This document shows, piece by piece, positions 949-32,436 of a DNA stretch of 64,000 bases (the first letter of the stretch is position 1; every line of letters begins with the position of its first letter). The stretch is from assembly GCA_964523895.1 (NCBI GenBank), contig CAZGBJ010000007.1:23000-86999 (forward strand). Reading direction: 5' to 3'. A model generated the notes under the pieces. It had not been told where the DNA came from. It searched no databases and was given only the letters and a program-made list of their open reading frames with translations. The DNA is from an uncultured Enterobacteriaceae bacterium. Lineage in GTDB: Bacteria; Pseudomonadota; Gammaproteobacteria; Eutrophobiales; Eutrophobiaceae. The position numbers and the translations under genes are program-made.

Positions 949-978
949 AATAGATTGGGTATTTAGAAGATAGATAAT

Positions 979-2040: not shown

Positions 2041-2045
2041 ATTTC

Positions 2046-3005: not shown

Positions 3006-3010
3006 GTATC

Positions 3011-4006: not shown

Positions 4007-7000
4007 AAAGTAAACAAGTTGCCGCAATAGTTGGTATTGGCGGCATCTTTCCTGGTGCACGTGATCTGGATGAATTCTGGCAGAATATTTTGAATGGGAA
4101 AGAGTCTGCTATTGATGTAGGTGCTGATCGTTGGCGTTTAGAGCCTGATGAACTGTACTCTCCTGATGTGTCTCCCGATAAAATTAATTCCCGTCGTGCC
4201 TGTTTGATTCAAAATTTTGAATTTAATCCAGAAGGGTTGAATGTTGATGCTGAGTTATTGCAACGTCTTGACCCGATGTATCAAATTTTATTGCATGCAG
4301 GTCGAGATGCCTGGGCTGATGCAAAAACGGATGCTATTAATAAACAACGTGTTGGTATTGTCATCGGTAATATCGCACTTCCTACTGAATCATCCTCACA
4401 ACTTAGTGATGAAATATTTAAACAACTCTTTGAATCACAGTTAGGTATTAATTCAGACCAACAAAAAGAAAAAATAGAGCCTTTAAATAGATATGTTGCC
4501 GGGTTGCCGGGTGGCTTATTGGCAAAAGCTTTAGGTTTTGGTGCAGGTGCTTATACATTAGATGCGGCATGTTCTTCCTCACTTTATTCTCTTAAGTATG
4601 CCATTGATGAATTAGTTGCTGGTCGCACTGATGTTATGTTAGCTGGTGGTTTATCTCGGCCGGATTGTTTGTATACACAAATGGGTTTTTCTCAACTCAA
4701 TGCCATTTCAAAGTCAGGTCGTTGTTCACCGTTTGATAGCAAAGCTGATGGTCTTGTAGTAGGTGAGGGAGCAGGTATTTTTGTACTTAAGCGATTAAGC
4801 GATGCCATCGAACAAGATGATCATATCTATGCCACGATAGAAGGTATTGGCCTTTCAAATGATATCGAAGGCAATATCATGTCGCCAGATTCGGAAGGTC
4901 AAGGCCGTGCAATGCAATCGGCTTATGAAATGGCCGGGTGGAAACCAAATCAAGTACAACATATTGAATGTCATGGCACAGGAACACCTGTTGGTGATGG
5001 CGTTGAATTCACCTCATTAAAAAATCTATGGCAAAGTCATAAGGTAGAGGGTGAATGTGTTATTGGATCAGTAAAAAGTAATGTCGGTCACTTATTAACA
5101 GCTGCTGGTGCTGCGGCATTAATGAAAACATTGTTAGCAATGAAACACGGTGTGTTACCGCCAACAGCAAATTATGAAAACCCTTCCAGTAAAATAGATT
5201 TAACAAATAGTCCATTCAAAGTTCTGGATAAAGCTGAGACGTGGAGTGTAAAAAACAATAGTCCAAGACGTGCTGCGATTAGTGGTTTTGGATTTGGTGG
5301 TATCAATGCGCATGTTCTTTTACAAGAGTATTTGCCAGAAACAATTAAAACGTTACCTTTAACGAGTATCGAAACTACGCATTCTGATAAATGTGATATT
5401 GCTATTGTAGGAATGGAATCACGACTAGGACCATGGAATGAACAGAATGATTTCGATAACGCATTATTATTTGGTTCAAATAAAGATGTTACTCATCCAA
5501 ACAATTGGTGGGGAGCAGATGGCAAAGCGTATCAGGGATATCTAATTGATGAAGTTAAAGTGCCTTTAGGTCGCTATAGAATACCTCCGGCTGAATTAAA
5601 AGAGATGTTGCCGCAGCAATTGTTAATGCTTGAAGTTGCAGCTAATGCATTGGATGACGCGAAACTTTCCGAGCTATCAAAAGAACAACAATGTCGTACA
5701 GGTGTTTTTATCGGTATTGCACTTGATTTGAATACAACTAATTTCCATTTTCGCTGGATGCAAAAGAAATATGCAAGAGAATGGCTGGAGAGATTAGGCA
5801 TTGAATTAAATAATATTGAATTAGATGAATGGGTAGAAAACCTTAAACAGTCATTTGGTCCATCATTATCTGCAAATCGAACTATGGGTGCGTTAGGCGG
5901 TATTGTTGCCAGTCGAATTGCCCGTGCTTTCCGAGTTGGTGGTCCCGCTTTTACTATTTCTTCTGAAGAAACATCGGGGTTACGAGCACTGGAATCCGGT
6001 GTGCGTGCCTTGCAACAGCAAGAACTGGATCAGGTAATTATAGGTGCTGTTGATCTGGCTAGTGATATTAGAGCTGTTAAAGCTAATGCAGATCAGATTG
6101 ATACTATTGCTGATGGAGCTACTGCCTTTGTCTTGAAACGTCACGAAGATGCCGTGCGTGATGGCGATAATGTTTATGCATTAATAAAAGGTATTGGTGT
6201 TGCGTCGGCAGGAGGCTGTGATGCAAAGGTTGAAGAATCTGGAATGGTTGCTGCTATTCAAAATGCTTGTTCAGATGCACAATGTCATTTAGATGCTATT
6301 GATTTAGTAAGTCAATCTTCTGTGAATGATGAAGTTGATATTCCTGCATTAGAAAATGCAACTATTAATACTTTCTCGCTTGGTCATTCGGGTGCAGCAA
6401 ATGGCTTAATGAATGTAGCGAATACAGTGACGCTATTAAATCAGTGTCTTCTGCCAAATGAGAATAATTCAAATGCGCGTTACTGGTTAAAAGATCGAAT
6501 AAAAGGCCCGAGACAGAGTTTAGTAAACAGTACAAGTATTGACGGTGTGTGTGTCAGTGTTGTTTTACAACAAGCCCAGAATAAAACACAGGCTAATATT
6601 GGTCTTAAAAATGTTAACTCTAAATTATTTTCGTTGTCAGCCAAGAATAAAGAATTATTAATAAATAAAATTAAAGCGTTATCTTTTGTTGATGTTGTTG
6701 AAGATACTAAAGAAAAATTTCGGGCTGTTATTCTTGTTAATAACGAAAATGAATTAAATTTAGCTCGCGAAGAACTCATTGCTAGCATACAAAAAAATAA
6801 CTCAATTGATAATGGACGCTGTTTTTATTCAGCGTCTCCTTTAGCGAAAGAAGGGAAAGTTGCCTTTGTCTATCCCGGCTCAGGCAATCATTTCTTCGGT
6901 ATGGGACAAGAGTTAGGTGTTAGTTTTCCTGAAGTATTGGAAAATTTAGATCAAGAAAATGAAATGCTATCTTCACAATTTGCAAAAGGTCGCTTTTGGC

Positions 7001-10000
7001 AAAATCACCATCATGAGGATAATCCTGGTAAAGAATTAAGCCATGAAGAAGTTATTTTCGGACAAGTGTGGTTGGGTACTTTTGTTAGTGATGTTGTAAC
7101 CAGCTTTGACGTTAAACCTGATGCCGTTATTGGTTATAGTCTGGGTGAGACTGCCGGTTTTTTCTCAACACGGACATGGACGGCTCGTGATGAGATGTTA
7201 AAACGAATTCAACAAAGTACTTTGTTTACAGAAGAATTGGCCGGCCCTTGTAAATCTGTACAAAAAGCATGGGGTACGGATAAACCTGTTAATTGGGCAC
7301 TGGGTGTAATTAATACCAGTGCCGAAAAAGTTAAAACGGTATTAAAAAAGTATGAACATGTTTATTTATTAATTATTAATACACCAAATGAATGTGTTAT
7401 TGGTGGAGACAAAACCAAATTAAACAAGGCTGTTAAAGAACTTGCTGTACAATATCATCCCTTGTCAGGTGTAACGACGGTGCATTGTGAAGTCGCTAAG
7501 CCTGTTGAAAAAGCGTATCGGGATTTACATATTTTTGAAACGACGCCGGCAAAAGGCGTTACTTTTTATAGTGGAATACGTGGTGGTGCATACGAGGTAA
7601 CACAGAATTCAGCCGCTGACTCTATTCTGGACCAAGCATTGGCTCCTTTCGATTATACCAAGGTGATTAATAGTGCCTATGAAGATGGTGTACGTCTGTT
7701 TATTGAAATGGGGCCAGGTGGTTCTTGTGCAAGAATGATCGATCAGATCCTTGAAGAGAAATCGCATTATGCGAAAGCAGTTTGTGTTAAAGGACAAAAC
7801 AGCGTTGATAATGTATTGCAAACACTAGCTAGATTATATGTTGAAGGCGTGGATGTGGATTTTTCAAAATTACAAACTAATAATGTTAAACAAGGAAAGA
7901 AATATAATAGCTATATTAGTGTTAAAACAGGTGGCGATCCGTTTAAAGTTCCACAACTTCCTATGTCTAAATCCGATGTTGTTGAAGAGATACATATTGA
8001 AAAAAATAACGTCGCAACAGATGTAATGTCATTACCAATGACTGCAAATGGTGACTATCAACCAACAATCGAGCCAATAATTCAACAAATGCAGCTCGCT
8101 GAACGAGCTCGTTCTGAAGCACAAGAAGCATTTCTGAGAGTTAGTCAGGGTATGACCGAGACTTTGACTCAAGCTATTAATATGCAAATGCAACTTTTGG
8201 ATAATGGCAACATTGATTTATCGCAAGTAATAATTAATCAAGAACAGTCTGATAGAGAAGAAACTCAAAGTAAGGATTGTCTGTTTGATCGTGAACAATG
8301 TATGGAAATAGCAATCGGATCTATTAGAAAAGTACTAGGTTCAGCATTTGCGGATATTGATACTTATCCCACAAGAGTACGTTTGCCTGATGAACCTTTA
8401 ATGTTAGCTGATCGTATTATAAGTATCGAAGGTGAAGCTGATTCTTTAAAAAACAACCCCAATACAAATGGGCGCGTTATCACTGAACATGATGTCTTGC
8501 CGGGAGCCTGGTATCTGGATCAGGGACGTATACCAACCTGTATCGCTGTTGAAGCAGGACAAGCCGATTTATTTTTATCCGGCTATTTAGGTATTGATCA
8601 TATATCCAAAGGACTGGCGGTTTATCGTTTATTAGATGCAAAAATTACCTTTCATGGATCCTTACCGGAAGCAGGACAAACTATTCATTATGATATTCGT
8701 ATCGATGAGTTCTTCCGACAAGATGACACTTATCTATTTCGTTTTAATTTTGAAGGTAGCGTCGCCTGCACGGATGCAGGCGGTAGAGTCGAGTCTGGAA
8801 CAGAGACCGGGATTGGTAGACCATTACTAACCATGACAGAAGGTTGTGCCGGTTTCTTTACTCAACAAGAATTAGATGCAGGAAAAGGCATCGTCTTAAC
8901 TAATATTGAAAAACAAAAAGCTCAGGGAATATTTACAAGTGACTGGAATGAATTAGTTGCTATGCAGAATGAAAGTTATAACGATGAACAGTTAAATGCG
9001 TTACGGCAAGGTGATTTAGCAACTTGTTTTGGTGGGGCATTTAATAATATTGAATTGAATAATCCAGTGGGTTTACCCAGTGGTCGCATGACATTAGTTC
9101 ATCGTATTTTAAATCTTGATCCTAAAGGTGGTCGTTTTGGAATAGGTCAAATTACTGGTGAAGCAGACATTCATCCTGATGACTGGTTCTTAACTTGTCA
9201 CTTTGTTGATGATCGCGTGATGCCTGGAACATTAATGTATGAATGTTGTTTGCATACCCTGCGTGTTTATTTATTAGGCATGGGTTGGATAGGTGAAACA
9301 GATGAGTTTGTTTATGAACCGATTATTGGCGAAGTGAGTCAGTTGAAATGTCGAGGACAAGTCACGGAAGAAACTAAAGCCGTTCAATATGAAATTACAT
9401 TAAAAGAAATTGGCTATCGTAATGATGGAACACCTTATGTATTAGCGGATGCATTAATGTACGGCGATCACCGTGCCATAGTGCAAATGAAAAATATGTC
9501 TGTTCAATTAAGCGGCTTAAAACGCGATAAATTGGAAGCGCTTTGGGAAAAGCAAATTAATAATATGAGTGGTTCTGAAATGGAGATTTTCAGAGGTGCT
9601 CATACAAAACAAGTTTTATTCGATAACGATTCGATTTTAGCTTTTGCTATTGGTAAGCCTTCCGAAGCCTTTGGTGATAAATACAAAATATTTGATTCCG
9701 AACGCAAGATTGCACGTCTACCAGGGCCGCCATACAAATTTCTTGATCGAATCGTTTCTATTAAAGATTGTGAACAATGGGTATTGAAAGCCGGTGGCGT
9801 TATCGAAGCTGAATATGATGTCCCCGTAGATGAATGGTACTTTACTGAAGATAATCAACCTTATATGCCGTTTGCCGTATTGCTTGAAGTGGCTTTGCAA
9901 CCTTGTGGCTGGTTAGCGGCATATTTAGGTTCAGCATTAAGCAGTGATATTGATATTTCATTTAGAAATTTAGGTGGCAAGGCAACACAATACATAAAAG

Positions 10001-10704
10001 TAACTCCAGAGATTGGGACGCTCACTACAAAAGTAAAGATGACCAGTGTCTCGCAGTCTGGCGGTATGATTATTCAGACGTATGATTACGAAATGACGTC
10101 AGATCAAGGGTTGGTATATAAAGGCGATACTAATTTTGGTTTCTTTTCAAAACAGGCATTGGCTGATCAAATTGGTATTCGCGATGCCAAACCTTATAGT
10201 CCAACAGAATTAGAACAGTCTCGAAGCAAATCCTTTGTTTATTCAGTTGATGCACCGATGCCTGCGGATATGATGCGTATGGTCGATGAGATTAGTCACT
10301 ATGATCCTGAAGGTGGGCCAAATAACCTGGGTTTTATAGAAGGAAAAGCAAGTGTAAAACAAGATGCCTGGTTTTTTAAAGCCCATTTTTATGAAGATCC
10401 GGTTTGGCCAGGTTCGTTAGGATTAGAATCTTTCATGCAGTTATTAAAAGCTTTTGCATGGGAGCGATGGCAGGGTGAACTACGGATCGGCGATTTTTCT
10501 TTTGATAGTATGGCTTTGCAGCAGGTTCACCAATGGGTATACCGAGGTCAAATCCTGCCGATTGATGAAAAAGTGACGGTTCAGGCGGTCATTACCGAGA
10601 TTGATGATGAGTCCAAAACCATTAAAGCGGATGGTTTTTTGACTGTTGATGGACGAATTATCTATCAGATGAAGAACTTTGCGCTTAGAATAACCTCCCT
10701 ATGA
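4003..10704 (+). CDS. pfaC: PfaC-like PUFA/secondary-lipid synthase subunit. KS (Cys190, nt 4570), KS-beta/CLF-like domain without active Cys, acyltransferase (GYSLGE, nt 7132-7149), then two FabA-type dehydratase domains (CHFVDDRVMPG at nt 9196; AHFYEDPVWPG at nt 10381).
   Basis: DAACSSS, HGTGT and GHLLTAAG motifs of the KS. A second KS-like fold has ISSEETSG in place of the Cys motif. An AT GxSxG motif is present. Two HxxxD/MPG FabA-like cores are present. The size (2233 aa) and domain order fit PfaC with an inserted PfaB-like AT. Confidence 0.8.
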   Translation: MKSKQVAAIVGIGGIFPGARDLDEFWQNILNGKESAIDVGADRWRLEPDELYSPDVSPDKINSRRACLIQNFEFNPEGLNVDAELLQRLDPMYQILLHAGRDAWADAKTDAINKQRVGIVIGNIALPTESSSQLSDEIFKQLFESQLGINSDQQKEKIEPLNRYVAGLPGGLLAKALGFGAGAYTLDAACSSSLYSLKYAIDELVAGRTDVMLAGGLSRPDCLYTQMGFSQLNAISKSGRCSPFDSKADGLVVGEGAGIFVLKRLSDAIEQDDHIYATIEGIGLSNDIEGNIMSPDSEGQGRAMQSAYEMAGWKPNQVQHIECHGTGTPVGDGVEFTSLKNLWQSHKVEGECVIGSVKSNVGHLLTAAGAAALMKTLLAMKHGVLPPTANYENPSSKIDLTNSPFKVLDKAETWSVKNNSPRRAAISGFGFGGINAHVLLQEYLPETIKTLPLTSIETTHSDKCDIAIVGMESRLGPWNEQNDFDNALLFGSNKDVTHPNNWWGADGKAYQGYLIDEVKVPLGRYRIPPAELKEMLPQQLLMLEVAANALDDAKLSELSKEQQCRTGVFIGIALDLNTTNFHFRWMQKKYAREWLERLGIELNNIELDEWVENLKQSFGPSLSANRTMGALGGIVASRIARAFRVGGPAFTISSEETSGLRALESGVRALQQQELDQVIIGAVDLASDIRAVKANADQIDTIADGATAFVLKRHEDAVRDGDNVYALIKGIGVASAGGCDAKVEESGMVAAIQNACSDAQCHLDAIDLVSQSSVNDEVDIPALENATINTFSLGHSGAANGLMNVANTVTLLNQCLLPNENNSNARYWLKDRIKGPRQSLVNSTSIDGVCVSVVLQQAQNKTQANIGLKNVNSKLFSLSAKNKELLINKIKALSFVDVVEDTKEKFRAVILVNNENELNLAREELIASIQKNNSIDNGRCFYSASPLAKEGKVAFVYPGSGNHFFGMGQELGVSFPEVLENLDQENEMLSSQFAKGRFWQNHHHEDNPGKELSHEEVIFGQVWLGTFVSDVVTSFDVKPDAVIGYSLGETAGFFSTRTWTARDEMLKRIQQSTLFTEELAGPCKSVQKAWGTDKPVNWALGVINTSAEKVKTVLKKYEHVYLLIINTPNECVIGGDKTKLNKAVKELAVQYHPLSGVTTVHCEVAKPVEKAYRDLHIFETTPAKGVTFYSGIRGGAYEVTQNSAADSILDQALAPFDYTKVINSAYEDGVRLFIEMGPGGSCARMIDQILEEKSHYAKAVCVKGQNSVDNVLQTLARLYVEGVDVDFSKLQTNNVKQGKKYNSYISVKTGGDPFKVPQLPMSKSDVVEEIHIEKNNVATDVMSLPMTANGDYQPTIEPIIQQMQLAERARSEAQEAFLRVSQGMTETLTQAINMQMQLLDNGNIDLSQVIINQEQSDREETQSKDCLFDREQCMEIAIGSIRKVLGSAFADIDTYPTRVRLPDEPLMLADRIISIEGEADSLKNNPNTNGRVITEHDVLPGAWYLDQGRIPTCIAVEAGQADLFLSGYLGIDHISKGLAVYRLLDAKITFHGSLPEAGQTIHYDIRIDEFFRQDDTYLFRFNFEGSVACTDAGGRVESGTETGIGRPLLTMTEGCAGFFTQQELDAGKGIVLTNIEKQKAQGIFTSDWNELVAMQNESYNDEQLNALRQGDLATCFGGAFNNIELNNPVGLPSGRMTLVHRILNLDPKGGRFGIGQITGEADIHPDDWFLTCHFVDDRVMPGTLMYECCLHTLRVYLLGMGWIGETDEFVYEPIIGEVSQLKCRGQVTEETKAVQYEITLKEIGYRNDGTPYVLADALMYGDHRAIVQMKNMSVQLSGLKRDKLEALWEKQINNMSGSEMEIFRGAHTKQVLFDNDSILAFAIGKPSEAFGDKYKIFDSERKIARLPGPPYKFLDRIVSIKDCEQWVLKAGGVIEAEYDVPVDEWYFTEDNQPYMPFAVLLEVALQPCGWLAAYLGSALSSDIDISFRNLGGKATQYIKVTPEIGTLTTKVKMTSVSQSGGMIIQTYDYEMTSDQGLVYKGDTNFGFFSKQALADQIGIRDAKPYSPTELEQSRSKSFVYSVDAPMPADMMRMVDEISHYDPEGGPNNLGFIEGKASVKQDAWFFKAHFYEDPVWPGSLGLESFMQLLKAFAWERWQGELRIGDFSFDSMALQQVHQWVYRGQILPIDEKVTVQAVITEIDDESKTIKADGFLTVDGRIIYQMKNFALRITSL

Positions 10705-11900
10705 ATTACTCCCGCGTACAAATGGAATCTATCGGTTATGAATTGCCACCGGTAGTGATTACTTCAGAAGATCTCGAGCATCGCCTAATGCCGATGTACG
10801 ACGCATTGCATATTGCTCCCGGTCAATTACAAGCCTTAACAGGTATTAGTGAACGTCGTTGGTGGGAAGAAGGACATGTACTATCCGATGGTGCAGCGGC
10901 AGCGGCTCGCAAAGCTCTGGAACAATCAAATGTTGAGGCAAAAGATATCGAAGCACTTGTTTATACGGGTGTTTGTCGGGAAAATTTTGAACCAGCTACA
11001 GCCTGTTCTGTTGCCGCCCAATTAGGCATTGGTGACGAAACTAATATTTATGACATATCCAACGCTTGTCTGGGCGTAATGAATGGTATTATTGATATTG
11101 CTAATCGTATCGAATTAAAACAAATCCGTGCCGGCATGGTGGTTTCCTGTGAAAGCTCTCGTGAAATCGTTGAGATTATGATTGAGCGTATGTTGCAGGA
11201 TAAAAGTATGGGTATGTTCACTAATTCATTGGCGACATTAACCGGTGGTTCAGGTGCTGCAGCAGTATTACTGACGGATGGTTCTTTCGATAATAAGGAG
11301 ACGCATCGCTTGGTTGGTGGCGCTAATCAATCTGCACCTGAATTTCATAAATTATGCCGTTGGGGTGTTACATTAACACCGCAGGCGATTGGTGATTTAA
11401 TGTTTTCACCGGATAAATTACTGGCTGCAATTGATCAGGTGATGGAGCCAGAAGTATTACCTAGCGCGATCAAGGAAGTGATGACCAGTGATAAATTGCC
11501 ACCGGCATTAACGAGTATAATGCCTTCAGAAAAGTTGCCGGCGGCATTATCTGAATTTATGTCTACCGATTCTGTATCAGTACTAAAGCACGGTGCAATA
11601 CTGGGTGTTAAAACCTGGGGTAATTTTCTGGGTAAAATGGGTTGGGCCAGAGACCAGGTTGATAAAGTCATTTGTCATCAGGTCGGTGAAGGTCATCGTG
11701 ATACCATATTAAAAGAACTGGGTATCGCACCCGAAAAAGATTTCAGTACTTATAAATATCTCGGCAATATCGGTACTGTTTCTGTTCCTTTAACAGCAGC
11801 CATTGCTGAACAAAGGCAGTTTCTTAAGAAAGGTGATCGCGTTAGTTTTCTTGGCATTGGTAGTGGTTTGAATTGCATGATGCTTGGTTGGGAATGGTAA
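10701..11900 (+). CDS. oleA: OleA, FabH-like thiolase for head-to-head Claisen condensation of acyl-CoAs
   Basis: KAS III/thiolase fold with ISNACLG (Cys123, nt 11067). The C-terminus LGIGSGLNCMMLGWEW and KLCRWG closely resemble Xanthomonas/Stenotrophomonas OleA (GIGSGLNC). It is followed by oleB-C-D homologs in canonical order. It carries a roughly 40-aa triple-repeat insertion not present in canonical OleA. Confidence 0.8.
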   Translation: MNYSRVQMESIGYELPPVVITSEDLEHRLMPMYDALHIAPGQLQALTGISERRWWEEGHVLSDGAAAAARKALEQSNVEAKDIEALVYTGVCRENFEPATACSVAAQLGIGDETNIYDISNACLGVMNGIIDIANRIELKQIRAGMVVSCESSREIVEIMIERMLQDKSMGMFTNSLATLTGGSGAAAVLLTDGSFDNKETHRLVGGANQSAPEFHKLCRWGVTLTPQAIGDLMFSPDKLLAAIDQVMEPEVLPSAIKEVMTSDKLPPALTSIMPSEKLPAALSEFMSTDSVSVLKHGAILGVKTWGNFLGKMGWARDQVDKVICHQVGEGHRDTILKELGIAPEKDFSTYKYLGNIGTVSVPLTAAIAEQRQFLKKGDRVSFLGIGSGLNCMMLGWEW

Positions 11901-11924
11901 TATTCTCCTGATCTAAATTTTATT

Positions 11925-12815
11925 ATGTCTTTTCCGGATTATCCTGATAACAATTCTTGTTATATGTCTGTTAATAACAGGCGACTACATTATCTCGAAG
12001 GAGGCAATGAACATCCTGAAACCGTTGTGATGTTACACGGGAATCCAAGTTGGTCATTTTATTATCGTCATCTGTTTACTGCATTAATCGATAAATATCA
12101 TTGTATTGTTCCTGACCATATTGGTATGGGTTTATCGGATAAGCCTGCTAGTAGTGAATATGACTTTACGCTAAAGCAACGCGTTGATGATCTTGATACG
12201 CTACTGTCCAGTTTGAATGTAGATAATAATTTAACGCTAATTGTCCATGATTGGGGCGGCATGATTGGTATGGCATACGCTACACGATATCCCGACAAGA
12301 TAAGACGATTAGTCATTTCCAATACAGCAGGTTTTCATATCCCGCAGGGAAAACAAATTCCCTGGCAATTAAAACTAAGTCGCACGCCATTAATTGGTTC
12401 TTTGTTGATTCAAGGACTCAATGCTTTTTGTCGAGGTGGTGTGATTCAATGTGTTACGCGAAAACCAATGAACAAAGATGTCAAAGATGCTTATTTAGCG
12501 CCTTATGATAGTTGGTCGAATAGATTATCTGTTTTACGATTTGTTGAAGATATTCCGTTAGATGAAGAGCATGTTACTTATGATGTGGTTGATAATGTTG
12601 ACAATAATTTACAACAGTTTTCAAGTTTACCAATGCTCATTTGCTGGGGATTAAATGACTTTGTCTTCGATCAACATTATCTAGCTGAATGGAAAAAACG
12701 TATGCCTATTGCGGAATACCATGAGTTTGATGCCGGACATTATTTGCTAGAAGATGCGAGTGATGAGGTTATTCCGATTATTAAACAATTTTTAGAAAAA
12801 CATATAATTAAATAA
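11925..12815 (+). CDS. oleB: OleB, alpha/beta-hydrolase (haloalkane dehalogenase-like) beta-lactone decarboxylase
   Basis: HGNPSWSFYYR and VHDWGG nucleophile-elbow region of the haloalkane-dehalogenase-like alpha/beta hydrolase family. Position between oleA and oleC. Confidence 0.75.
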   Translation: MSFPDYPDNNSCYMSVNNRRLHYLEGGNEHPETVVMLHGNPSWSFYYRHLFTALIDKYHCIVPDHIGMGLSDKPASSEYDFTLKQRVDDLDTLLSSLNVDNNLTLIVHDWGGMIGMAYATRYPDKIRRLVISNTAGFHIPQGKQIPWQLKLSRTPLIGSLLIQGLNAFCRGGVIQCVTRKPMNKDVKDAYLAPYDSWSNRLSVLRFVEDIPLDEEHVTYDVVDNVDNNLQQFSSLPMLICWGLNDFVFDQHYLAEWKKRMPIAEYHEFDAGHYLLEDASDEVIPIIKQFLEKHIIK

Positions 12816-12926
12816 TTATTTTTATTGCCACGGAGCACACAGAGGCCACGGAGAAAAGAAAAATGAAACTATTTAGTAAAAAAAATATGTATATCTCTGT
12901 GTTCTCTGTGGCTAATATTTAAAATT

Positions 12927-14582
12927 ATGATTACGGCAAATATTGCATCCCATTTGCCAGTAATGGCTGAGAAACAGCCCGAAACGTATGCGGTTGTTAA
13001 ACAGAGCAAGAACAAATCAAAAAAACCTTCATATGAAATTGCTTATACCTATAAGCAACTGGATGACGTTAGCAATCTTATTGCTAATGGTTTAGAAGCA
13101 TACGGAGTAAAAAAAGGAACGAGAACAGTACTTATGGTTAAACCGGGGCTTGATTTTTTTGCGTTGGTTTTTGCTTTGTTTAAACTTGAAGCGGTTCTGG
13201 TTGCTGTTGATCCGGGTATGGGAATTAAAAATCTGGGTAAATGTCTTAAAGAAGCTGAGCCTGAAGCCTTTATAGGCAACAGCACAGCGCATCTAGCTAG
13301 AATTACATTATCGTGGTCAAAGAATACAATAGATAAAACAGTTTTAACCGGGAGTAATATTTTATTAAATCAATTTTTAACAGACCTTAACAAGATAAAA
13401 TTGTTTGGAAAGCAGTCTGAAAGAAATAAAATAGAAACAAAGGCTGAAGATGTCGCTGCGATTCTTTTTACCAGCGGTAGTACCGGTGTTCCTAAAGGCG
13501 TTGTTTATACACATGCTAATTTTACGGCGCAAGTTGAAGCGTTAAAAAAACTTTATAATATTCAGCCAGGTGAAGTTGATCTTGCAACATTTCCATTGTT
13601 TGCCTTATTTGCTCCAGCGATGGGAATGACATCAATTATTCCACAGATGGATTTTACTAAACCCGGTACAGTTGATCCAACAAGAATTATCGATGCCGTG
13701 ACACAATATAAATGCACCAATATGTTTGGTTCGCCTGCCTTGCTTAATCGAGTGGGAAAATGGAGTGAGCATAAGGAAATTAAACTATCATCATTGAAAC
13801 GCGTATTGTCAGCCGGTGCACCTGTGTCTTCAACTGTGTTGCAACGCTTTAAAAAAATATTGAATGAAGATGTACAGATTTTTACACCCTACGGTGCAAC
13901 GGAATCATTACCAGTCAGTTCTATAGGCAGTGATGTGATTATTAATGAAACATCTAAGCTGACGGCTAAAGGAAAAGGCGTATGCGTTGGCAAAGCTGTT
14001 ACAGGCCTGGATGTGAAAATTATAAAGATTAATGACAATGTTATTCCAGAATGGAAAGATGAACTTGAATCACCAGTTAATGAAATAGGTGAAATTTGTG
14101 TTAAAGGTCCACAGGTGACACGAAATTATTTTAATCGTAATGATGCAACCGGGCTAGCTAAGATAAGAACAGATAATGGTTTTTACCACCGTATGGGTGA
14201 TGTAGGTTATCTTGATTGGCAAGATAGACTTTGGTTTTGTGGCCGTAAGAGTCAACGTGTCATTATTGAAACAGAAACAATGTTTACAATATGCTGTGAA
14301 GCAATATTTAATTCGCATCCTTTTGTTTTTCGATCAGCTTTAGTTGGAGCGCAAGCGAATAAAAAAACAATCCCTGTGATTTGTATTGAACTTGAGCCTG
14401 AACATAAATGGTTTAATAAAGAAGAATTTAAAAAAGAGTTGTTGTCTTTAGCTTCTAACTCTGAACTTACAAAGAATATCAAACATATTCTTTTTCATTC
14501 TGGGTTCCCGGTAGATATTAGACATAATGCCAAAATTGGTCGGGAAAAACTGACGATATGGGCTAGTAAAGAAGTCACATGA
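12927..14582 (+). CDS. oleC: OleC, AMP-dependent synthetase/ligase family (beta-lactone synthetase)
   Basis: Adenylate-forming enzyme motifs TSGSTGxPKG (FTSGSTGVPKGV) and YGATE. Position in the oleABCD order. Confidence 0.75.
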   Translation: MITANIASHLPVMAEKQPETYAVVKQSKNKSKKPSYEIAYTYKQLDDVSNLIANGLEAYGVKKGTRTVLMVKPGLDFFALVFALFKLEAVLVAVDPGMGIKNLGKCLKEAEPEAFIGNSTAHLARITLSWSKNTIDKTVLTGSNILLNQFLTDLNKIKLFGKQSERNKIETKAEDVAAILFTSGSTGVPKGVVYTHANFTAQVEALKKLYNIQPGEVDLATFPLFALFAPAMGMTSIIPQMDFTKPGTVDPTRIIDAVTQYKCTNMFGSPALLNRVGKWSEHKEIKLSSLKRVLSAGAPVSSTVLQRFKKILNEDVQIFTPYGATESLPVSSIGSDVIINETSKLTAKGKGVCVGKAVTGLDVKIIKINDNVIPEWKDELESPVNEIGEICVKGPQVTRNYFNRNDATGLAKIRTDNGFYHRMGDVGYLDWQDRLWFCGRKSQRVIIETETMFTICCEAIFNSHPFVFRSALVGAQANKKTIPVICIELEPEHKWFNKEEFKKELLSLASNSELTKNIKHILFHSGFPVDIRHNAKIGREKLTIWASKEVT

Positions 14583-15577
14583 AAGCCCTGGTGACTGGAG
14601 GTGGCGGTTTTCTTGGCAGTGCTATTGTAAAAGCATTACTGGATAAAGGTAACTCTGTCAGGGCTATACAAAGGGGAGACTATCCCTTTTTAAAAGAGCT
14701 GGGTGCTGAAGCTATTCAGGGTGATTTGACCAGACCTGACGATATTAATGCGGCTGCCAGCGGATGTGATGTTATCTTTCATGTGGCAGCAAAAGCTGGT
14801 GTATGGGGTGATTATAACGATTATTATCAAGCTAATGTGGTCGCTACTAAAAACGTATTACAGGCTTGTCGGGTCAATAATGTTAATAATCTGATATATA
14901 CCAGTACACCCAGCGTTGTCTTCAATGGTGAAAATGAAGAAGGCATTAACGAGTCAGCGCCTTATGTAAAAAACTGTTTTAATGCCTATCAAAAAACCAA
15001 AGCAGAAGCAGAGCAGCTTGTTATCAATGCAAATAATACTGATTTAAAAACAGTGTCATTAAGACCGCATTTAATCTGGGGTCCGGGTGATCCTCATCTT
15101 GCGCCAAGAATTATTAGCCGGGCGAAAACAGGTCGTTTAAGACTAGTAGGCAATAAAAATAATAAAGTTGATTCCTGTTATATAGATAATGCAGTTCAGG
15201 CTCATTTGTTAGCGGCTGATTGTTTGCAGTCAAATAAAGTTTGCGCGGGGAAAATATATTTTATTAGCAATGATGAACCGATTAGCATGGCTGATTTAAT
15301 TAATAAAATTTTAACTGCCGCTGATTTGCCGTCAGTCAATAAAAATTTACCTGAAAGAGCAGCCTATATCATTGGCTATGTGCTGGAAAAAAGTTATACA
15401 TTATTAAATATAAATAACGAACCTGTAATGACACGATTTGTTGCCCGGCAACTTTCGACGTCACATTGGTTTGACCTGTCAGCTGCAAAACAGGATCTAG
15501 GTTATCAAGCGCAGGTCAGTATTGATGAAGGAATGAAATGCCTTAAAGAATCACTTGCTTCTGATGTTTCTAAATGA
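14579..15577 (+). CDS. oleD: OleD, NAD(P)H-dependent reductase of the 3-beta-hydroxysteroid dehydrogenase/epimerase-dehydratase family
   Basis: VTGGGGFLGSAIV Rossmann motif with YxxxK (YQKTK), 3beta-HSD/NAD-epimerase family. ATGA overlap with oleC and with the downstream PPTase. Confidence 0.75.
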   Translation: MKALVTGGGGFLGSAIVKALLDKGNSVRAIQRGDYPFLKELGAEAIQGDLTRPDDINAAASGCDVIFHVAAKAGVWGDYNDYYQANVVATKNVLQACRVNNVNNLIYTSTPSVVFNGENEEGINESAPYVKNCFNAYQKTKAEAEQLVINANNTDLKTVSLRPHLIWGPGDPHLAPRIISRAKTGRLRLVGNKNNKVDSCYIDNAVQAHLLAADCLQSNKVCAGKIYFISNDEPISMADLINKILTAADLPSVNKNLPERAAYIIGYVLEKSYTLLNINNEPVMTRFVARQLSTSHWFDLSAAKQDLGYQAQVSIDEGMKCLKESLASDVSK

Positions 15578-16296
15578 ATAACGTTAATAAATTACTGGAA
15601 ACCAAGATTGAATTGTCAGATAAGAAAATACACGTTTTTTTATTGGAACTTGATTTGTTTAATGGTGATGATTTATATGTTTATTTGCCAGAAGATGAAG
15701 CTAAAAGGGCTGCTAGATTAAAGATAGAGGAAAAAAAGAATCAATTTGTAATCAGTAGGGGGATACTCAGATTATTGTTGTCAAATTGTTTGCAGAAAAA
15801 ACCAGAGAAAATAAATTTCTTATATGGGCAGCATTGCAAACCCGCTATCGAAGATAAGTATAATAATAAATCAGTTGAATTCAATGTGTCCCATTCTGGG
15901 GGTTATGCATTAATAGCAATAACGTTAGATAATAAAGTGGGCGTTGATATTGAAAAAATAAATCATGAAATAGATTATCAATCGTTATCTGATCGATTTT
16001 TCAGTGGCAAAGAAAATGATGAATTAAGAAGTTTGGATGAAAATGAGAAATTAGATGCTTTTTATCGGGCATGGGTAAGAAAGGAATCTTTCATAAAAGC
16101 AACAGGGAAAGGTATTACTTTTGGTCTTGATAGTTTTTCTGTTTCGTTGGCTGAAAGTAGAAAATCCAGTATTGAAGTTATTTCTGAAAATTTAATAAAT
16201 GAACAATGGTATTGCTACGATTTAAATAATCTGGATGACTATAAACTGGCGTTAACAAGTTGTAGCAAGGAACAGGAACTTATTATTTTCCGGTAA
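15574..16296 (+). CDS. pfaE: Sfp-type 4-prime-phosphopantetheinyl transferase (PfaE-like)
   Basis: PPTase motifs FNVSHSG, GVDIE and WxRKESFIKATGKG. Terminal gene of the pfa/ole operon. Confidence 0.75.
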   Translation: MNNVNKLLETKIELSDKKIHVFLLELDLFNGDDLYVYLPEDEAKRAARLKIEEKKNQFVISRGILRLLLSNCLQKKPEKINFLYGQHCKPAIEDKYNNKSVEFNVSHSGGYALIAITLDNKVGVDIEKINHEIDYQSLSDRFFSGKENDELRSLDENEKLDAFYRAWVRKESFIKATGKGITFGLDSFSVSLAESRKSSIEVISENLINEQWYCYDLNNLDDYKLALTSCSKEQELIIFR

Positions 16297-19250: not shown

Positions 19251-19760
19251 TTATTGGGCAAATTCTACCAGACTTGAATGTGAAAAAAGAAAATCGTTAT
19301 CAGGCATTGGCGTATGACAGCTCGCGCAATCCAGTTTATTGTCTTTTACTGTGCCATCTGTTTTGTAAATGGCAAAACCCCAATCGCCGGCGCGTTGTGC
19401 GGCATCGAAACCGGCATCCCAGTTTGATCGTTTTTCCATGACAGCAACGGCAGCAAATTTACCTTTTTCAAAAAGTCCATCCGCACCGGTAATAGGTTTA
19501 CCATCTTCCCCAGGGTTGGTTTTGTATACTTCCATAACAATTATTGCGCCATCGCCAAGCTCTGCATCAGAAGCAGTATCAATGGCAATTTTATTGCCAT
19601 AAAGTACGGCAAGCTGTTTACCATTTATACGATTGCGAGTGTCGTATTGAATGAATTCTGATTTATAGCCTTCGGGATAGCTAACATGCTCAGGATTTCC
19701 CCCGGCATAAGCAATGCAACTGAGCGATAAAGCAAGTAATGCTGTTATGATTATTTTCAT
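19251..19760 (-). CDS. Periplasmic cytochrome P460 / c-prime-beta-like haem protein
   Basis: N-terminal signal peptide. Roughly 170 aa with a single C-terminal CxxCH (CASCH), as in the cytochrome P460 family. Confidence 0.45.
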   Translation of the reverse strand: MKIIITALLALSLSCIAYAGGNPEHVSYPEGYKSEFIQYDTRNRINGKQLAVLYGNKIAIDTASDAELGDGAIIVMEVYKTNPGEDGKPITGADGLFEKGKFAAVAVMEKRSNWDAGFDAAQRAGDWGFAIYKTDGTVKDNKLDCASCHTPMPDNDFLFSHSSLVEFAQ

Positions 19761-26289: not shown

Positions 26290-26346
26290 CAGGTTTCAGG
26301 CTCTCAAGTAGAGTCCGCCGTCTTGTTGAGATTAGCAGTTTTATTT

Positions 26347-26422
26347 GGGGCTATAGCTCAGCTGGGAGAGCGCTTGCGTGGCACGCAAGAGGTCGGCGGT
26401 TCGATCCCGCCTAGCTCCACCA
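26347..26422 (+). tRNA. tRNA-Ala (anticodon GGC)
   Basis: 76-nt sequence GGGGCTATAGCTCAGCTGGGAGAGCGC...GGC...TCGATCCCGCCTAGCTCCACCA is near-identical to E. coli tRNA-Ala(GGC). Ends in encoded CCA. Confidence 0.9.
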
Positions 26423-26467
26423 ATATATATTTTAAGTAGGCTGTTTTTCAGGACATATACAAATATT

Positions 26468-26543
26468 GTCCCCATCGTCTAGAGGCCTAGGACACTGCCC
26501 TTTCACGGCGGCAACAGGGGTTCGAATCCCCTTGGGGACGCCA
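26468..26543 (+). tRNA. tRNA-Glu (anticodon UUC)
   Basis: GTCCCCATCGTCTAGAGGCCTAGGACACTGCCCTTTCACGGCGGCAACAGGGGTTCGAATCCCCTTGGGGACGCCA matches the E. coli tRNA-Glu scaffold. Ends in CCA. Confidence 0.9.
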
Positions 26544-26549
26544 ATATTA

Positions 26550-26577
26550 AAAAAGCAGCTTTATAGCTGTTTTTTTA
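26550..26577 (+). terminator. Rho-independent terminator after the tRNA pair
   Basis: AAAAAGCAGCT-TTAT-AGCTG followed by a T7 run. Confidence 0.6.
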
Positions 26578-26675
26578 ATATTGATTTATTAAACGATGAG
26601 AACCAGTTCGACAAATTTGTCAGGAACAAATTTGAACGGTCGAAGACCGGCCCGCAGGGTGGAGCACATGGAAGT

Positions 26676-26701
26676 GCGAAATAATCCCCTTGGGGACGCC
26701 A
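26676..26701 (+). repeat. Direct repeat of the 3-prime end of tRNA-Glu (19 nt identical, aatccccttggggacgcca, plus a 3-nt-interrupted T-loop piece). Att-site-like remnant.
   Basis: nt 26683-26701 are identical to nt 26525-26543 of tRNA-Glu. The preceding cgaaATAat matches cgaat of the T-loop apart from a 3-nt insertion. Confidence 0.7.
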
Positions 26702-26706
26702 TACAT

Positions 26707-26732
26707 AAAGCCCACGTATATGTGGGCTTTTT
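26707..26732 (+). terminator. Rho-independent terminator, possibly bidirectional for the convergent XRE gene
   Basis: AAAGCCCAC-GTATAT-GTGGGCTTTTT, a 6-9 bp stem with a T-run. Confidence 0.6.
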
Positions 26733-26762
26733 AATTTAGTAATTTATAGTTCAGTTCTTCCT

Positions 26763-27125
26763 CTAAGCCATTGCCTGATTTGTGGTAGTTAGGGTAAACA
26801 CATGACGTTTGCCGATAGTCTTGGTTTCCAGTCTATGTCCAAGGCGAACAAATTTATCCATTAAATAATCAATAGTGTATTGATCAAATTTTGTTGGGCT
26901 ACAAATAGCGCTGACTTCTGGTTGTTTAATGCCGAGAATTTCTGCGGCTTTTGCCTGAGTCAGTTTGTGCTTCTTCAAATGTGTTCGAATAGCACAAGAC
27001 AGGTCAGCCTTAACCTTCAGCACTGCTGCAGTTCCATCATCGAAACCGATGTCTTTGAAGACGTTGCCGGATGATGAGGTCATTTTACTTATGTTTTTCA
27101 TGTCTTTACTCTCTTTTGTGGTCAC
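26763..27125 (-). CDS. XRE-family HTH protein (HigA/antitoxin-like). The true start may be the internal Met at 27083.
   Basis: NVFKDIGFDD ... LTQAKAAEILGIKQPEVSAI HTH_XRE pattern, as in HigA2-type antitoxins. No toxin partner ORF is visible upstream. Confidence 0.55.
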   Translation of the reverse strand: MTTKESKDMKNISKMTSSSGNVFKDIGFDDGTAAVLKVKADLSCAIRTHLKKHKLTQAKAAEILGIKQPEVSAICSPTKFDQYTIDYLMDKFVRLGHRLETKTIGKRHVFTLTTTNQAMA

Positions 27126-27210
27126 ACTTACGGCCGCTGACCTAGCTACTGTTTCAGTATATTTTCAATCTCATTCTTAGAGTCTTATGGAAATATTAAT
27201 ATTTAAGGGT

Positions 27211-27530
27211 CTTCAGCAGAATCTGTGGGTTAACAAGAAAAGTATTTTTGAAAACTTGAACAAATAAAATAAGTTAGGTGTTAAATGGGCTGTTTTATTT
27301 CTGTACTCGTATTTAACGGACAATTAAAAAGTTCCGTCATTCCGGGCTTGACCCGGAATCCAGTTAAACAAGCAGTACGTCCACATTATGTTGATAATAA
27401 CGTATTGAATTTTAGAGGATGTTTTATCTATTTAAAACTTTACCTAAAGATGTTATCCACTGGATTCCGGGTCAAGCCCGGAATGACGGGGTATTATTTT
27501 CATAATATCTACCCACAGATTCTGCTGAAG
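27211..27530. repeat. Roughly 320-bp nested inverted-repeat element (MITE-like or compound REP). Outer 20-bp perfect TIRs are 27211-27230 and 27511-27530. Inner 30-bp perfect IRs are 27334-27363 and 27460-27489, and each is itself an 8-bp-stem hairpin.
   Basis: CTTCAGCAGAATCTGTGGGT vs ACCCACAGATTCTGCTGAAG are exact reverse complements. TCCGTCATTCCGGGCTTGACCCGGAATCCAG and its exact reverse complement lie 96 bp apart. Only a spurious 86-aa ORF lies inside. Confidence 0.6.
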
Positions 27531-27663
27531 AGCCATATTTTATAGCATATTGAATGCGTTTTAACCGTGTTTATTATTTTGCTATTATCAGTTTTATAGT
27601 ATTATAGCTATAGTACATTTCTTATCTTTTCTTAAATTCAATTTCTTGATTTCTATCATATAA

Positions 27664-29990: not shown

Positions 29991-31295
29991 ATGAAAGTCA
30001 CCATGTTAGGTTGTGGTTATGTCGGGCTTGTTTCGGGTACTTGTTTTGCTGAGTTTGGTGCCAACGTCACCTGTTTTGATGTCGACAAAACCAAGGTGAA
30101 AAAATTATTGGAAGGTATTATACCAATATATGAACCGGGTCTTGATGATTTGGTTAAAAAGAATATTGATCAGGGGCGACTTTCTTTCTCGCATGATCTG
30201 AATGACTGTATTTCTGATTCTGATCTTGTTTTTGTAGCTGTAGGTACACCGACAAGACGAGGAGATGGTCATGCTGATTTAAGTTATGTCTATCAAGCTG
30301 TGCAGGATATTGCACCATTCCTAAAAAATTATACTGTGATTGTTGATAAATCGACTGTGCCGGTTGGTACGGCAAGAAACGTTAAACGCATTATTGCCGA
30401 AACAAATCCAGATGCTGATTTTGATGTTGCATCAAATCCTGAGTTTCTTCGAGAGGGCGCAGCGATTACTGATTTTATGCGTCCGGATCGTGTTGTGATT
30501 GGAGTCGAAAATAAACGTGCAGAAAGCGTATTAAGAGAATTATATCGACCTATTAACTTAATTGAATCGCCAATATTATCAACTGATCTTGAAAGTGCAG
30601 AACTAATTAAATACGCATCGAATGCATTTTTAGCAACCAAGGTTAGCTTTATTAATGAAATATCTGTTCTTTGTGAAGAAGTAGGTGCAGATGTTCATGC
30701 CATTGCCAAAGGCATGGGTTTGGATGGACGAATTGGCCGTAAGTTTTTACACCCCGGTCCAGGTTATGGTGGTTCATGTTTCCCAAAAGATACTCAGGCA
30801 CTGGTGCGAACGGCTCAGGAACATGGTGTATCAAGTCGTATTGTAGAAACGGTTATTGAAGTCAATGAAGCACAGAAAGCAAGAATGATAAAAAAAATTC
30901 GCAGTGCGTTAGGGGGAAATGAAAATGGTAAAACGATAGCTGTTTTGGGTCTAACCTTTAAACCTGAAACAGATGATATGCGCGATGCACCTTCTCTCGC
31001 TATATTGCCAAAACTGGTTGAAAATGGTTGCCAAATAAATGCACATGATCCTCAAGGTATCAATGAAGCAAAATTATTATTGCCCTCTGAAATTCAGTAT
31101 CATGATGGTATCTATTCAACTATAAACAATGCTGATGCCGTGGTATTGATGACAGAATGGAATATGTACCGCAATCTGGATATGGATGTCATTAAAGAGA
31201 AACTAAACAAACCTGTATTTGTTGATCTTCGTAATGTCTATGAACCCGATGCAATGAAATCACTGGGTTTTGATTATTATTGTATTGGCAGATAA
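29991..31295 (+). CDS. ugd: UDP-glucose 6-dehydrogenase
   Basis: MLGCGYVGLVSG N-terminus and GGSCFPKD catalytic Cys motif. 434 aa. Confidence 0.8.
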   Translation: MKVTMLGCGYVGLVSGTCFAEFGANVTCFDVDKTKVKKLLEGIIPIYEPGLDDLVKKNIDQGRLSFSHDLNDCISDSDLVFVAVGTPTRRGDGHADLSYVYQAVQDIAPFLKNYTVIVDKSTVPVGTARNVKRIIAETNPDADFDVASNPEFLREGAAITDFMRPDRVVIGVENKRAESVLRELYRPINLIESPILSTDLESAELIKYASNAFLATKVSFINEISVLCEEVGADVHAIAKGMGLDGRIGRKFLHPGPGYGGSCFPKDTQALVRTAQEHGVSSRIVETVIEVNEAQKARMIKKIRSALGGNENGKTIAVLGLTFKPETDDMRDAPSLAILPKLVENGCQINAHDPQGINEAKLLLPSEIQYHDGIYSTINNADAVVLMTEWNMYRNLDMDVIKEKLNKPVFVDLRNVYEPDAMKSLGFDYYCIGR

Positions 31296-31306
31296 AACAT
31301 AGATTA

Positions 31307-31927
31307 ATGAATAAAGTAACGAATCAACATACAATCTGGCATGCGCCTTCAGTCTATCGAAAAGACAGGGAAGAAATGAATGGACACAAAAGTGTCATTG
31401 TCTGGTTTACTGGTCTATCAGGCGCTGGTAAATCCACAGTAGCACATGCATTAGAAGATAGATTACATAAAAACAAAATCAGAACTTTTGTTCTTGATGG
31501 AGATAATGTCAGGCGCGATCTATGTAAAGACCTTGGTTTTTCAGATGATGATCGAACCGAGAATATCAGACGAATCGGTGAAGTAAGTAAACTCATGATG
31601 GAAGCCGGTGTTATAGTTTTGACTGCATTTATTTCCCCCTTTATTAAAGATAGACAAATTGTCAGGGAATTGGCTGCTAAAGGTGAGTTTATCGAAGTGT
31701 ATTGTGATGCTTCACTCGATGTTTGTGAGTTACGTGATGTAAAAGGACTATACAAAAAAGCTCGAGCAGGTGAAATTCCCGAGTTTACAGGGATATCTTC
31801 ACCGTATGAATATCCAAACAACCCTGAAATTGTACTCGATACTGCAAACCAATCGGTAGAAAATGCAGTTGAATGTATAATTGCTTACCTTTGTGAAAGA
31901 CAAATTATAACTATTAATCGTTTATAA
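31307..31927 (+). CDS. cysC: Adenylyl-sulfate (APS) kinase. The supplied ORF start at 31280 overlaps ugd, so the start is probably the Met at 31307.
   Basis: VxWFTGLSGAGKSTVA P-loop, LDGDNVR, and FISPFxxDRQ. Colinear with E. coli CysC. Confidence 0.85.
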   Translation: MNKVTNQHTIWHAPSVYRKDREEMNGHKSVIVWFTGLSGAGKSTVAHALEDRLHKNKIRTFVLDGDNVRRDLCKDLGFSDDDRTENIRRIGEVSKLMMEAGVIVLTAFISPFIKDRQIVRELAAKGEFIEVYCDASLDVCELRDVKGLYKKARAGEIPEFTGISSPYEYPNNPEIVLDTANQSVENAVECIIAYLCERQIITINRL

Positions 31928-31935
31928 AATATCTT

Positions 31936-32436
31936 ATGAAGTTCTGGTATTTAATCCATTCAAAACCTAAAGATGAAAAAGTAGCTCAGGAAAACCTTGA
32001 GAGGCAGGGTTATGAAACCTATTTGCCGTTAATTCTTGGTAGAGCAAAAAAGCGTGGTAAAACAATAAAATCGATTCAACCGATGTTCCCTAGATATCTA
32101 TTCATTCATTTGAGCGATCAAACTGATGACTGGGGGCCTATTCGTTCAACATTGGGTGTCTCTAGTTTGATCCGATTTGGTTTGACGCCAGCAAGAGTAC
32201 CGGAGGCGCTAATAAATTCATTAAAGAATAATGAAAATATTCAAGGAATTCATGAGCTTCCGACTAAACCTTTATCTGCTGGAGATAAATTACTCATCGT
32301 TGAAGGTCCATTTGAGGGATATGAAGCGACCTTATTTAGCCAAAAATCAGATGATAGAGTTATCGTACTATTAAAAATTGCTGAAAATTATGTAAAAGTT
32401 AAGTTAGAACAATCACTTATAGAGCCATTAAGCTAA
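31936..32436 (+). CDS. rfaH: RfaH-type operon-specific transcription antiterminator (NusG paralog)
   Basis: MKFWYLIHSKPKDEKVAQENLERQGYETYLPL matches the RfaH N-terminal NGN domain pattern (WYLLxxKxxxExxAxxxLxRQ) and the size is 166 aa. A canonical ops site is present 0.8 kb downstream. Confidence 0.7.
   Translation: MKFWYLIHSKPKDEKVAQENLERQGYETYLPLILGRAKKRGKTIKSIQPMFPRYLFIHLSDQTDDWGPIRSTLGVSSLIRFGLTPARVPEALINSLKNNENIQGIHELPTKPLSAGDKLLIVEGPFEGYEATLFSQKSDDRVIVLLKIAENYVKVKLEQSLIEPLS

Follow-up and report, generated by a model that had tools for sequence, protein, structure and literature searches.

Insertion sequences of the ISL3 family, such as IS1411, IS31831 and IS1096, have ends that start with GG and are flanked by 8-bp AT-rich duplications. 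A different kind of repeat, the CGTC REP, consists of a CGTC tag, an 8-9 bp stem starting with AT, a 4-5 nt loop and a CCA tail; CGTC REPs occur mostly as inverted dimers with 20-100 bp spacers, include dRS3 of Neisseria and RPE-4 and RPE-6 of Rickettsia, and have "no dedicated transposase" (Di Nocera, De Gregorio and Rocco 2013, PMC3733652). Perfect REP homodimers were suggested to be disfavored for reasons of stability (PMC3733652). In Neisseria, the NTS repeat (consensus CGTCATTCCCGCGMAVGCGGGAATCYRG), which belongs to a wider class called SRM, is bound as single-stranded DNA, not RNA, by SsnA, a 94-aa GIY-YIG protein that cuts just upstream of it (Chenal et al. 2025, PMC11893778). The GTC upstream of the NTS palindrome and the C right after it are critical, and ssnA genes are typically flanked by the motif (PMC11893778).

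Here, we analyze a nested palindrome in a 64-kb stretch of DNA (the window) from a low-G+C organism (36.8%) whose closest named GltX relatives are MAGs labeled Gammaproteobacteria or Pseudomonadota. Positions 27207-27534 very probably constitute a 328-bp non-autonomous MITE derived from an ISL3-family insertion sequence, a reading built on direct observations: the identity of its ends, the absence of a transposase, a target-site duplication (TSD), empty sites in relatives, further copies and the identity of its hairpin motif. A first-pass annotation had taken the structure for a transposon-derived miniature element or a REP/BIME-type repeat, and both halves of that suggestion are right, the outer repeat being the terminal inverted repeat (TIR) of an ISL3 group and the inner arms being of REP type. 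The features of the locus are as follows:

27148-27178, minus strand: remnant of a toxin gene, about 30 nt and frameshifted; the homology of relatives stops at 27178.
27199-27206, no strand: left TSD copy, ATATTTAA, abutting the left end and equal to the right copy at 7/8 positions.
27207-27230, plus strand: left 24-nt TIR of ISL3 type, GGGTCTTCAGCAGAATCTGTGGGT, which also ends full-length ISL3 elements and other MITEs.
27231-27333, plus strand: left subterminal region, 103 nt, with 98.7% identity to the L033 copy.
27334-27364, plus strand: inner arm L, its hairpin reading forward on the plus strand, a perfect 31-nt inverted repeat with 27459-27489.
27365-27458, no strand: AT-rich spacer of 94 nt that separates the arms; the L033 copy lacks it.
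27459-27489, minus strand: inner arm R, the same hairpin reading forward on the minus strand.
27490-27510, plus strand: right subterminal region, 21 nt, kept in L033.
27511-27534, minus strand: right 24-nt TIR (reverse complement GGCTCTTCAGCAGAATCTGTGGGT); homology to L253 restarts at 27535.
27535-27542, no strand: right TSD copy, ATATTTTA, the same as the lone 8-mer at the L253 empty site.
27561-27588, plus strand: promoter-like site of the glycan operon from a promoter scan, TTAACC, 16 nt, TG-TATTAT.

The perfect 20-bp outer inverted repeat of the first-pass annotation is real: 27211-27230 reads CTTCAGCAGAATCTGTGGGT, 27511-27530 is the reverse complement of this, and 100 shuffles gave no chance match with 3 mismatches allowed. 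It grows outward by 4 nt (GGGT / AGCC) to true ends of 24 nt with one mismatch, and it is with these ends that the element measures 328 bp. The inner repeat pairs perfectly, as described, over 31 nt rather than the 30 bp given (27334-27364 and 27459-27489, 100% complementary, 94 nt apart). Each arm is also a hairpin in its own right, ATTCCGGG-CTTGA-CCCGGAAT, with arm L reading CCGTC-ATTCCGGG-CTTGA-CCCGGAAT-CCAGT. Neither the outer nor the inner repeat occurs again in the 64-kb window with 3 mismatches allowed, shuffled sequences yield neither of them, and the window holds one copy of the element. As single-stranded DNA, 27200-27540 has a predicted folding energy of -81.8 kcal/mol, against -29.3 +/- 4.4 for shuffled sequences (z = -11.9). 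From 26821 onward, the window is identical to an independent JGI contig, Ga0114933_10000389, and the nested palindrome is therefore no one-off assembly artifact. The only open reading frame in the element (86 aa) has no Pfam match, and a tblastn search of the 64-kb window with two ISL3 transposases as queries found no ISL3 transposase. Open reading frame positions bear out the placement: on the left lies the XRE gene on the minus strand (26763-27125), and on the right the first gene of the glycan locus, from 27664 onward. This locus spans about 36 kb, all on the plus strand.

The outer 20-mer occurs exactly in at least 120 metagenome contigs from very diverse samples. About one-third of the matches listed are no farther than about 150 nt from the end of their contig, as is typical of repeats; nearly all of those listed are preceded by GGGT or GGCT (GGST), and most are followed by the 3' end of an opposite-strand gene whose product ends in LPEPxxTHRFC (...AYGFRSYRCLEIALYHTLGQLPEPETTHRFC, then stop). 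In full-length copies, the last codons of the transposase (THRFC) and its stop codon fall within the repeat. The genes in L088 and L003 match DDE_Tnp_ISL3 (E = 2.6e-79 and 2.9e-70, respectively) and additionally encode ISL3 HTH and zinc-ribbon domains. Because these ends are common to transposase-bearing elements, we identify the outer repeat as the 24-nt TIR of an ISL3 group, GGST-CTTCAGCAGAATCTGTGGGT, examples of which lie at L003 8846-10369 and L088 1011-2421. Pairing each 20-mer match with its partner end yielded two classes of elements. The first comprises full-length elements of 1.36-1.6 kb with both ends present, including four with perfect 8-bp duplications (L003, GATTCATG; L016, GGATTGCC; L041, CAATGTTC; L118, TAAAAAAT), and the second comprises gene-free elements of 200-375 bp, with perfect 8-bp duplications in L033, L010, L031, L042, L082 and L099.

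The window element shares with ISL3 MITEs ends identical to those of full-length elements, an 8-bp AT-rich TSD, the absence of a transposase, a size in the 200-375 bp range, copies at unrelated sites and empty sites in relatives. It differs from them in that its parent group is met in metagenome contigs only, and in that its subfamily bears a REP-type hairpin dimer as cargo. In a plasmid-database search, the nearest annotated plasmid ISL3 transposases were those of Paraburkholderia, Caballeronia and Polaromonas, at about 57% identity, but these elements have a different end, ACCCACACTTTTTACTGACGAACC, encoding THTFY and a stop codon. Neither repeat sequence was found in any paper of the library searched. 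The contigs collected here document an ISL3 group whose GGST-CTTCAGCAGAATCTGTGGGT ends are conserved over 39-66% G+C: across contigs of 39% to 66% G+C (L002-L121) the 24 nt are essentially invariant, which may stem from the end also encoding the THRFC C-terminus of the transposase and its stop codon.

Insertion is documented by relatives that lack the element. Exact-protein look-ups with the XRE and GltX of the window yielded no match, not even for P0007, which is 100% identical. We reached relatives instead through XRE homologs at 85-93% identity and through GltX homologs at 88-89%, the latter leading to syntenic contigs. Two contigs, L252 and L253, are syntenic with the window (gltX 88% identical; order gltX, tRNAs, XRE, epimerase), align to it on both flanks and lack the element; in L253, BLAST homology restarts at 27535, the first base past the right end. 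Removing the element and one TSD copy in silico gives an empty window site, ATGGAAATATTAATATTTAA joined to TAGCATATTGAATGCGTTTTAACCG, that aligns without a gap at the junction to ATTGAAATATTGATATTTTATGGTTATTAAATATGTTTTAACCG in L253 and to ATAGAAATATTAATATTT-ATGGTTATTAAATGCATTTTAACCG in L252. Both relatives have a single ATATTT(T)A at the insertion point. The 8-mer of L253 is ATATTTTA itself, and this lone copy is the classical empty-site proof of insertion. XRE homologs on short contigs (L248-L250) and the 72% homolog (L242-L247) lie in other contexts and offer no empty site, but it was through them that the loss of a toxin gene from the window came to light.

Flanking duplications, empty sites in relatives and further copies had been named in the first-pass annotation as things to check, and each is seen here: the 8-bp AT-rich duplication (ATATTTAA / ATATTTTA) agrees at 7/8 positions and is perfect in sister copies, the site is uninterrupted in L252 and L253, each of the two repeats recurs many times outside the window, and related elements lie at unrelated sites. 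An eye-catching nested palindrome is thereby explained as an ordinary mobile-element insertion, and that insertion is dated as lineage-specific. As a mechanism, we propose that an ISL3 DDE transposase would recognize the 24-nt ends and mobilize the MITE in trans, the enzyme being supplied by a full-length copy in the genome or the community. Insertion into the intergenic region upstream of the glycan operon duplicated the 8-bp AT-rich target ATATTTTA.

Judged by their sequence, the inner arms are CGTC-tagged REP, NTS/SRM-like hairpins, and the motif family is pan-bacterial. In a scan of one genome per species, the 24-mer GTCATTCCGGGCTTGACCCGGAAT occurs exactly in at least 120 genomes from many phyla; the matches listed include Bacteroidota, Nitrospirota, Dehalococcoidia, Proteobacteria, Treponema, Fibrobacter and Armatimonadota, as well as Gottesmanbacteria, Melainabacteria, Verrucomicrobia and Jettenia. 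At most of the loci listed, an inverted partner such as CTGGATTCCCGCTTTCGCGGGAATGAC follows after 8-60 nt. None of the 120 genome loci listed has an ISL3 end near the hairpin with up to 3 mismatches, so the hairpin is normally independent of the ISL3 transposon, which has captured it. In L135, what looked like an ISL3 end close to the hairpin was rejected as a chance 4-mismatch match inside a gene.

The window arm fits each structural feature of CGTC REPs (the CGTC tag, an 8-bp stem starting with AT, a 5-nt loop and the CCA tail), and the inverted dimer has a 94-nt spacer within the published range of 20-100 bp. It departs from them in being a perfect homodimer that rides inside an element with transposon ends. 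CGTC REPs are repeated many times in their host genomes; the 64-kb window holds two arms, both within the MITE. The likeness to NTS lies in the flanks: CGTCATTCC before the hairpin and GGAATCCAG after it are the conserved flanks that give NTS its orientation, including the critical GTC and C, with a match of 9/9 on the 5' side (CGTCATTCC) and 9/9 on the 3' side (GGAATCYRG). The cores differ, GGGCTTGACCC in the window against CGCGMAVGCG in NTS. As a regular expression, the published SRM pattern HGTCWYN(0-2)YYVSBRHN(0-5)WNVSBRGN(0-2)RNCYNB has no match in the window, and a check by hand showed that it fails on the arms at one loop base. Because the pattern fails and recognition by a nuclease is only putative, we do not file the arms as SRM members. 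In L136 and L226, the exact 24-mer stands on both sides of GIY-YIG genes, reproducing the NTS-ssnA-NTS layout. A crude test of the 64-kb window, combining a motif regular expression with phmmer and an approximate E. coli YhbQ query, returned no GIY-YIG/ssnA gene. By analogy with NTS, the arms may interact with an Ssn nuclease.

The same hairpin is found in other arrangements. An Armatimonadota MAG carries a head-to-tail array of five copies of the 24-nt hairpin with a 47-nt period and similar "spacers" (L153 5493-5704), and another array lies at L167 2357-2416. In an alphaproteobacterial MAG (L174 4371-6150), five copies of the 24-mer are interleaved with a second hairpin type, GATCCTGAAnnAGTTCAGGATGAC. 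A dimer in a Nitrospirota MAG, CGTCATTCCGGGCTTGACCCGGAATCCAG ... CTGGATTCCCGCTTTCGCGGGAATGACG (L135 289-358), apparently falls within an open reading frame, like published intragenic REPs.

Related copies place this cargo within a MITE subfamily. The copy in L033 is 202 bp long, shows 98.7% identity over 151 nt and occupies an unrelated site, where a perfect TCAAATAC duplication flanks it. In tetranucleotide composition, its 255-kb contig correlates with the window at 0.95, compared with 0.96-0.97 for true relatives and <0.35 for unrelated contigs; going by composition and the 98.7% identity only, it may come from the source organism. L033 lacks 125 bp, including the spacer and one arm, and has a single hairpin, CCGTCATTCCGGG-CTTGA-CCCGGAATGACGG, where the window holds two arms and a spacer; a dimer that collapsed across its short direct repeats would be expected to leave just this. 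More distant members on contigs of 37-45% G+C (L010, L031/L051 and L062) have the layout of the window element: end, subterminal region, arm, spacer, arm, subterminal region, end. The window and L062 are 68% identical over 163 nt that include the end and the arm, with z = 6.3 for the left subterminal region. On the right, the subterminal regions of L031 and L062 (z = 7.5) and of L010 and L031 (z = 5.1) are similar, and that of the window (27490-27510) is weakly homologous to that of L031 (z = 3.5). Since the layout is shared together with homologous subterminal regions, the hairpin dimer is the ancestral cargo of the subfamily.

When copies are aligned by their outer frame, L031 and L010 have spacers that are reverse complements of each other (z = 10.4 flipped versus 0.1 direct), and the L031 spacer is also flipped relative to the end of the L062 spacer (z = 5.0 versus 1.1 direct), so the family has seen at least one inversion of the segment that separates the arms. 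The window spacer has no significant similarity to the spacers of the other family members. We take the dimer to have been present ancestrally, with no recent nested insertion. In this subfamily it acts as an unstable long palindrome, having collapsed in one near-identical copy and showing its interior in both orientations among family members. Only the hairpin-dimer cargo, with the collapse and inversion it has undergone from copy to copy, is unusual about the element.

The explanation that best survives beside an ancestral cargo is that a self-standing palindrome of the REP-dimer, RPE or WsnRNA46 type (27334-27489) was recently inserted into an older, simpler ISL3 MITE, which we consider unlikely. 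It accords with the overwhelming occurrence of the motif away from ISL3 ends (the 120 loci above), with the existence of hairpin-free MITEs that have the same ends (L042, L066, L082, L094 and L099), with the 31/31 identity of the window arms, as expected of a recent origin, with a window spacer unrelated to those of the other members and with the 125 bp missing from L033. However, L033 retains one complete hairpin with the outer CCGTC...GACGG, as expected of a collapse product and not of a pre-insertion site; no separate target duplication flanks the inner module; and the dimer occupies the same relative position in four diverged members (the window, L010, L031/L051 and L062) with homologous subterminal regions, so its capture predates their divergence.

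A further reading, which we regard as highly improbable, is a WsnRNA46-type structured RNA, either a small RNA gene or a cis-regulatory element, located in the 5' region of the glycan operon or upstream of the divergently oriented XRE gene. Rfam model RF02625 (WsnRNA46) does match 27314-27507 over the whole model with 45.6 bits (E about 1e-8), the predicted fold of the region is very stable, and the hairpin structure is kept with differing stem sequences in other family members. This Wolbachia small RNA and the window element share an architecture in which an AT-rich spacer separates two GTCAT..CC..GGATCCAG-type arms, each about 31 nt long, but the spacer of the window element is 59-62 nt longer than that of the model, and the similarity is restricted to the arms. 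The score is below the family's gathering score of 65.3 bits (in the window, two tRNAs alone exceed the gathering thresholds of their models), and the opposite strand scores nearly as high (38.8 bits), as a DNA palindrome does. The arms pair perfectly over 31 nt without G-U pairs or bulges, and close relatives without the whole segment still keep the operon and the promoter-like site. The related NTS is recognized as single-stranded DNA, not RNA (Chenal et al., PMC11893778). The first-pass annotation had held that a single-copy sequence conserved as a structured RNA would overturn its view; the repeats are instead present in many copies, and the one relevant Rfam match is sub-threshold and on both strands.

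Invertible promoter switches, or invertons, have precedents in the capsule loci of Bacteroides and in fimS of E. coli. At the window locus, such a switch would use the 24-nt repeats as recombinase sites to flip the 280-bp segment and turn the glycan operon on or off, and the geometry invites the idea, with inverted repeats of about 24 nt around some 280 bp immediately 5' of a long glycan operon and promoter-like hexamers, at chance level, on the minus strand of the segment. We give this next to no credence, since the repeats are ISL3 ends that hold the transposase stop codon in full-length copies, homologous copies are located at unrelated sites, the best promoter-like site lies outside the segment, no recombinase was found among the open reading frames scanned (part of those in the window), the five contigs carrying the epimerase have the same neighbors, with one arrangement seen and sequence from one contig, and the segment, bordered by an 8-bp duplication in the window, is absent in L252 and L253, which retain the promoter-like site; these empty sites largely refute the inverton reading.

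The MITE may nevertheless matter to the operon next to it. The promoter-like stretch at 27561-27588 is conserved in L252 and L253, the latter having TGCTATAAT, and we infer that it serves the glycan operon as a promoter. The element ends 27 nt upstream of its -35 hexamer and therefore replaces whatever lay upstream of about -60, roughly where an upstream promoter element or activator site would be expected for this 36-kb operon. Expression of the glycan operon may for this reason differ from that in relatives, and the element may affect the glycan promoter, as the first-pass annotation had suggested, or the XRE gene.

A MITE subfamily with a captured CGTC/NTS-type dimer is a concrete example of how transposase-less repeats could be moved. 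We have also considered a wider role, in which ISL3-type MITEs act as vehicles that carry Ssn-related hairpin dimers between sites and genomes, the copy at the edge of the glycan locus limiting transformational replacement; this is a speculation that we hold to be improbable. If it were true, each strand would have one correctly oriented cleavage site at which a resident Ssn nuclease would cut incoming single-stranded DNA, and the copy at the glycan edge would parallel the role proposed for NTS clusters around surface-antigen genes of Neisseria. The window arms also offer a natural substrate on which Ssn nucleases, themselves a recent discovery, could be assayed beyond Neisseria.

The other flank of the element has a history of its own. 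The XRE protein is an HTH_37 (HigA-like) antitoxin, and in L249, L250 and L252 an intact Gp49/HigB-like toxin gene lies beside it. In the window, this toxin gene has been deleted save for about its last 30 nt (27148-27178), which makes the XRE gene an orphan antitoxin. The junction of this deletion (about 27178/27186) is 13-20 nt from the TSD of the element, and the deletion is therefore a separate event.

Among relatives, the stretch from gltX, tRNA-Ala(GGC) and tRNA-Glu(TTC) to the glycan locus (window 26290-27660) is hypervariable. It has no toxin-antitoxin genes in L251 (5405-5996), one toxin-antitoxin pair in L252 (5405-6842; order gltX, tRNAs, XRE, Gp49 toxin, epimerase) and three antitoxin-like genes in L253 (5399-8160). 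It looks like a hotspot of small selfish elements beside tRNA genes.

Other parts of the window hold further genes of interest. At 31280-32436, the glycan locus includes an APS kinase gene, which hints at a sulfated glycan, and a 166-aa NusG-family paralog, possibly an operon-specific antiterminator of the RfaH/LoaP type. At 157-16296, three sugar epimerase/dehydratase genes precede a giant PfaC-like open reading frame (2233 aa) with ketosynthase and FabA-like domains, which is followed by OleA (thiolase)-, OleB (alpha/beta hydrolase)-, OleC (AMP-binding)- and OleD (3-beta-HSD)-like genes and a phosphopantetheinyl transferase gene; this looks like a polyunsaturated hydrocarbon/olefin cluster. 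Finally, a cytochrome P460 gene adjoins a gene for a Sel1-repeat protein at 19251-19760.
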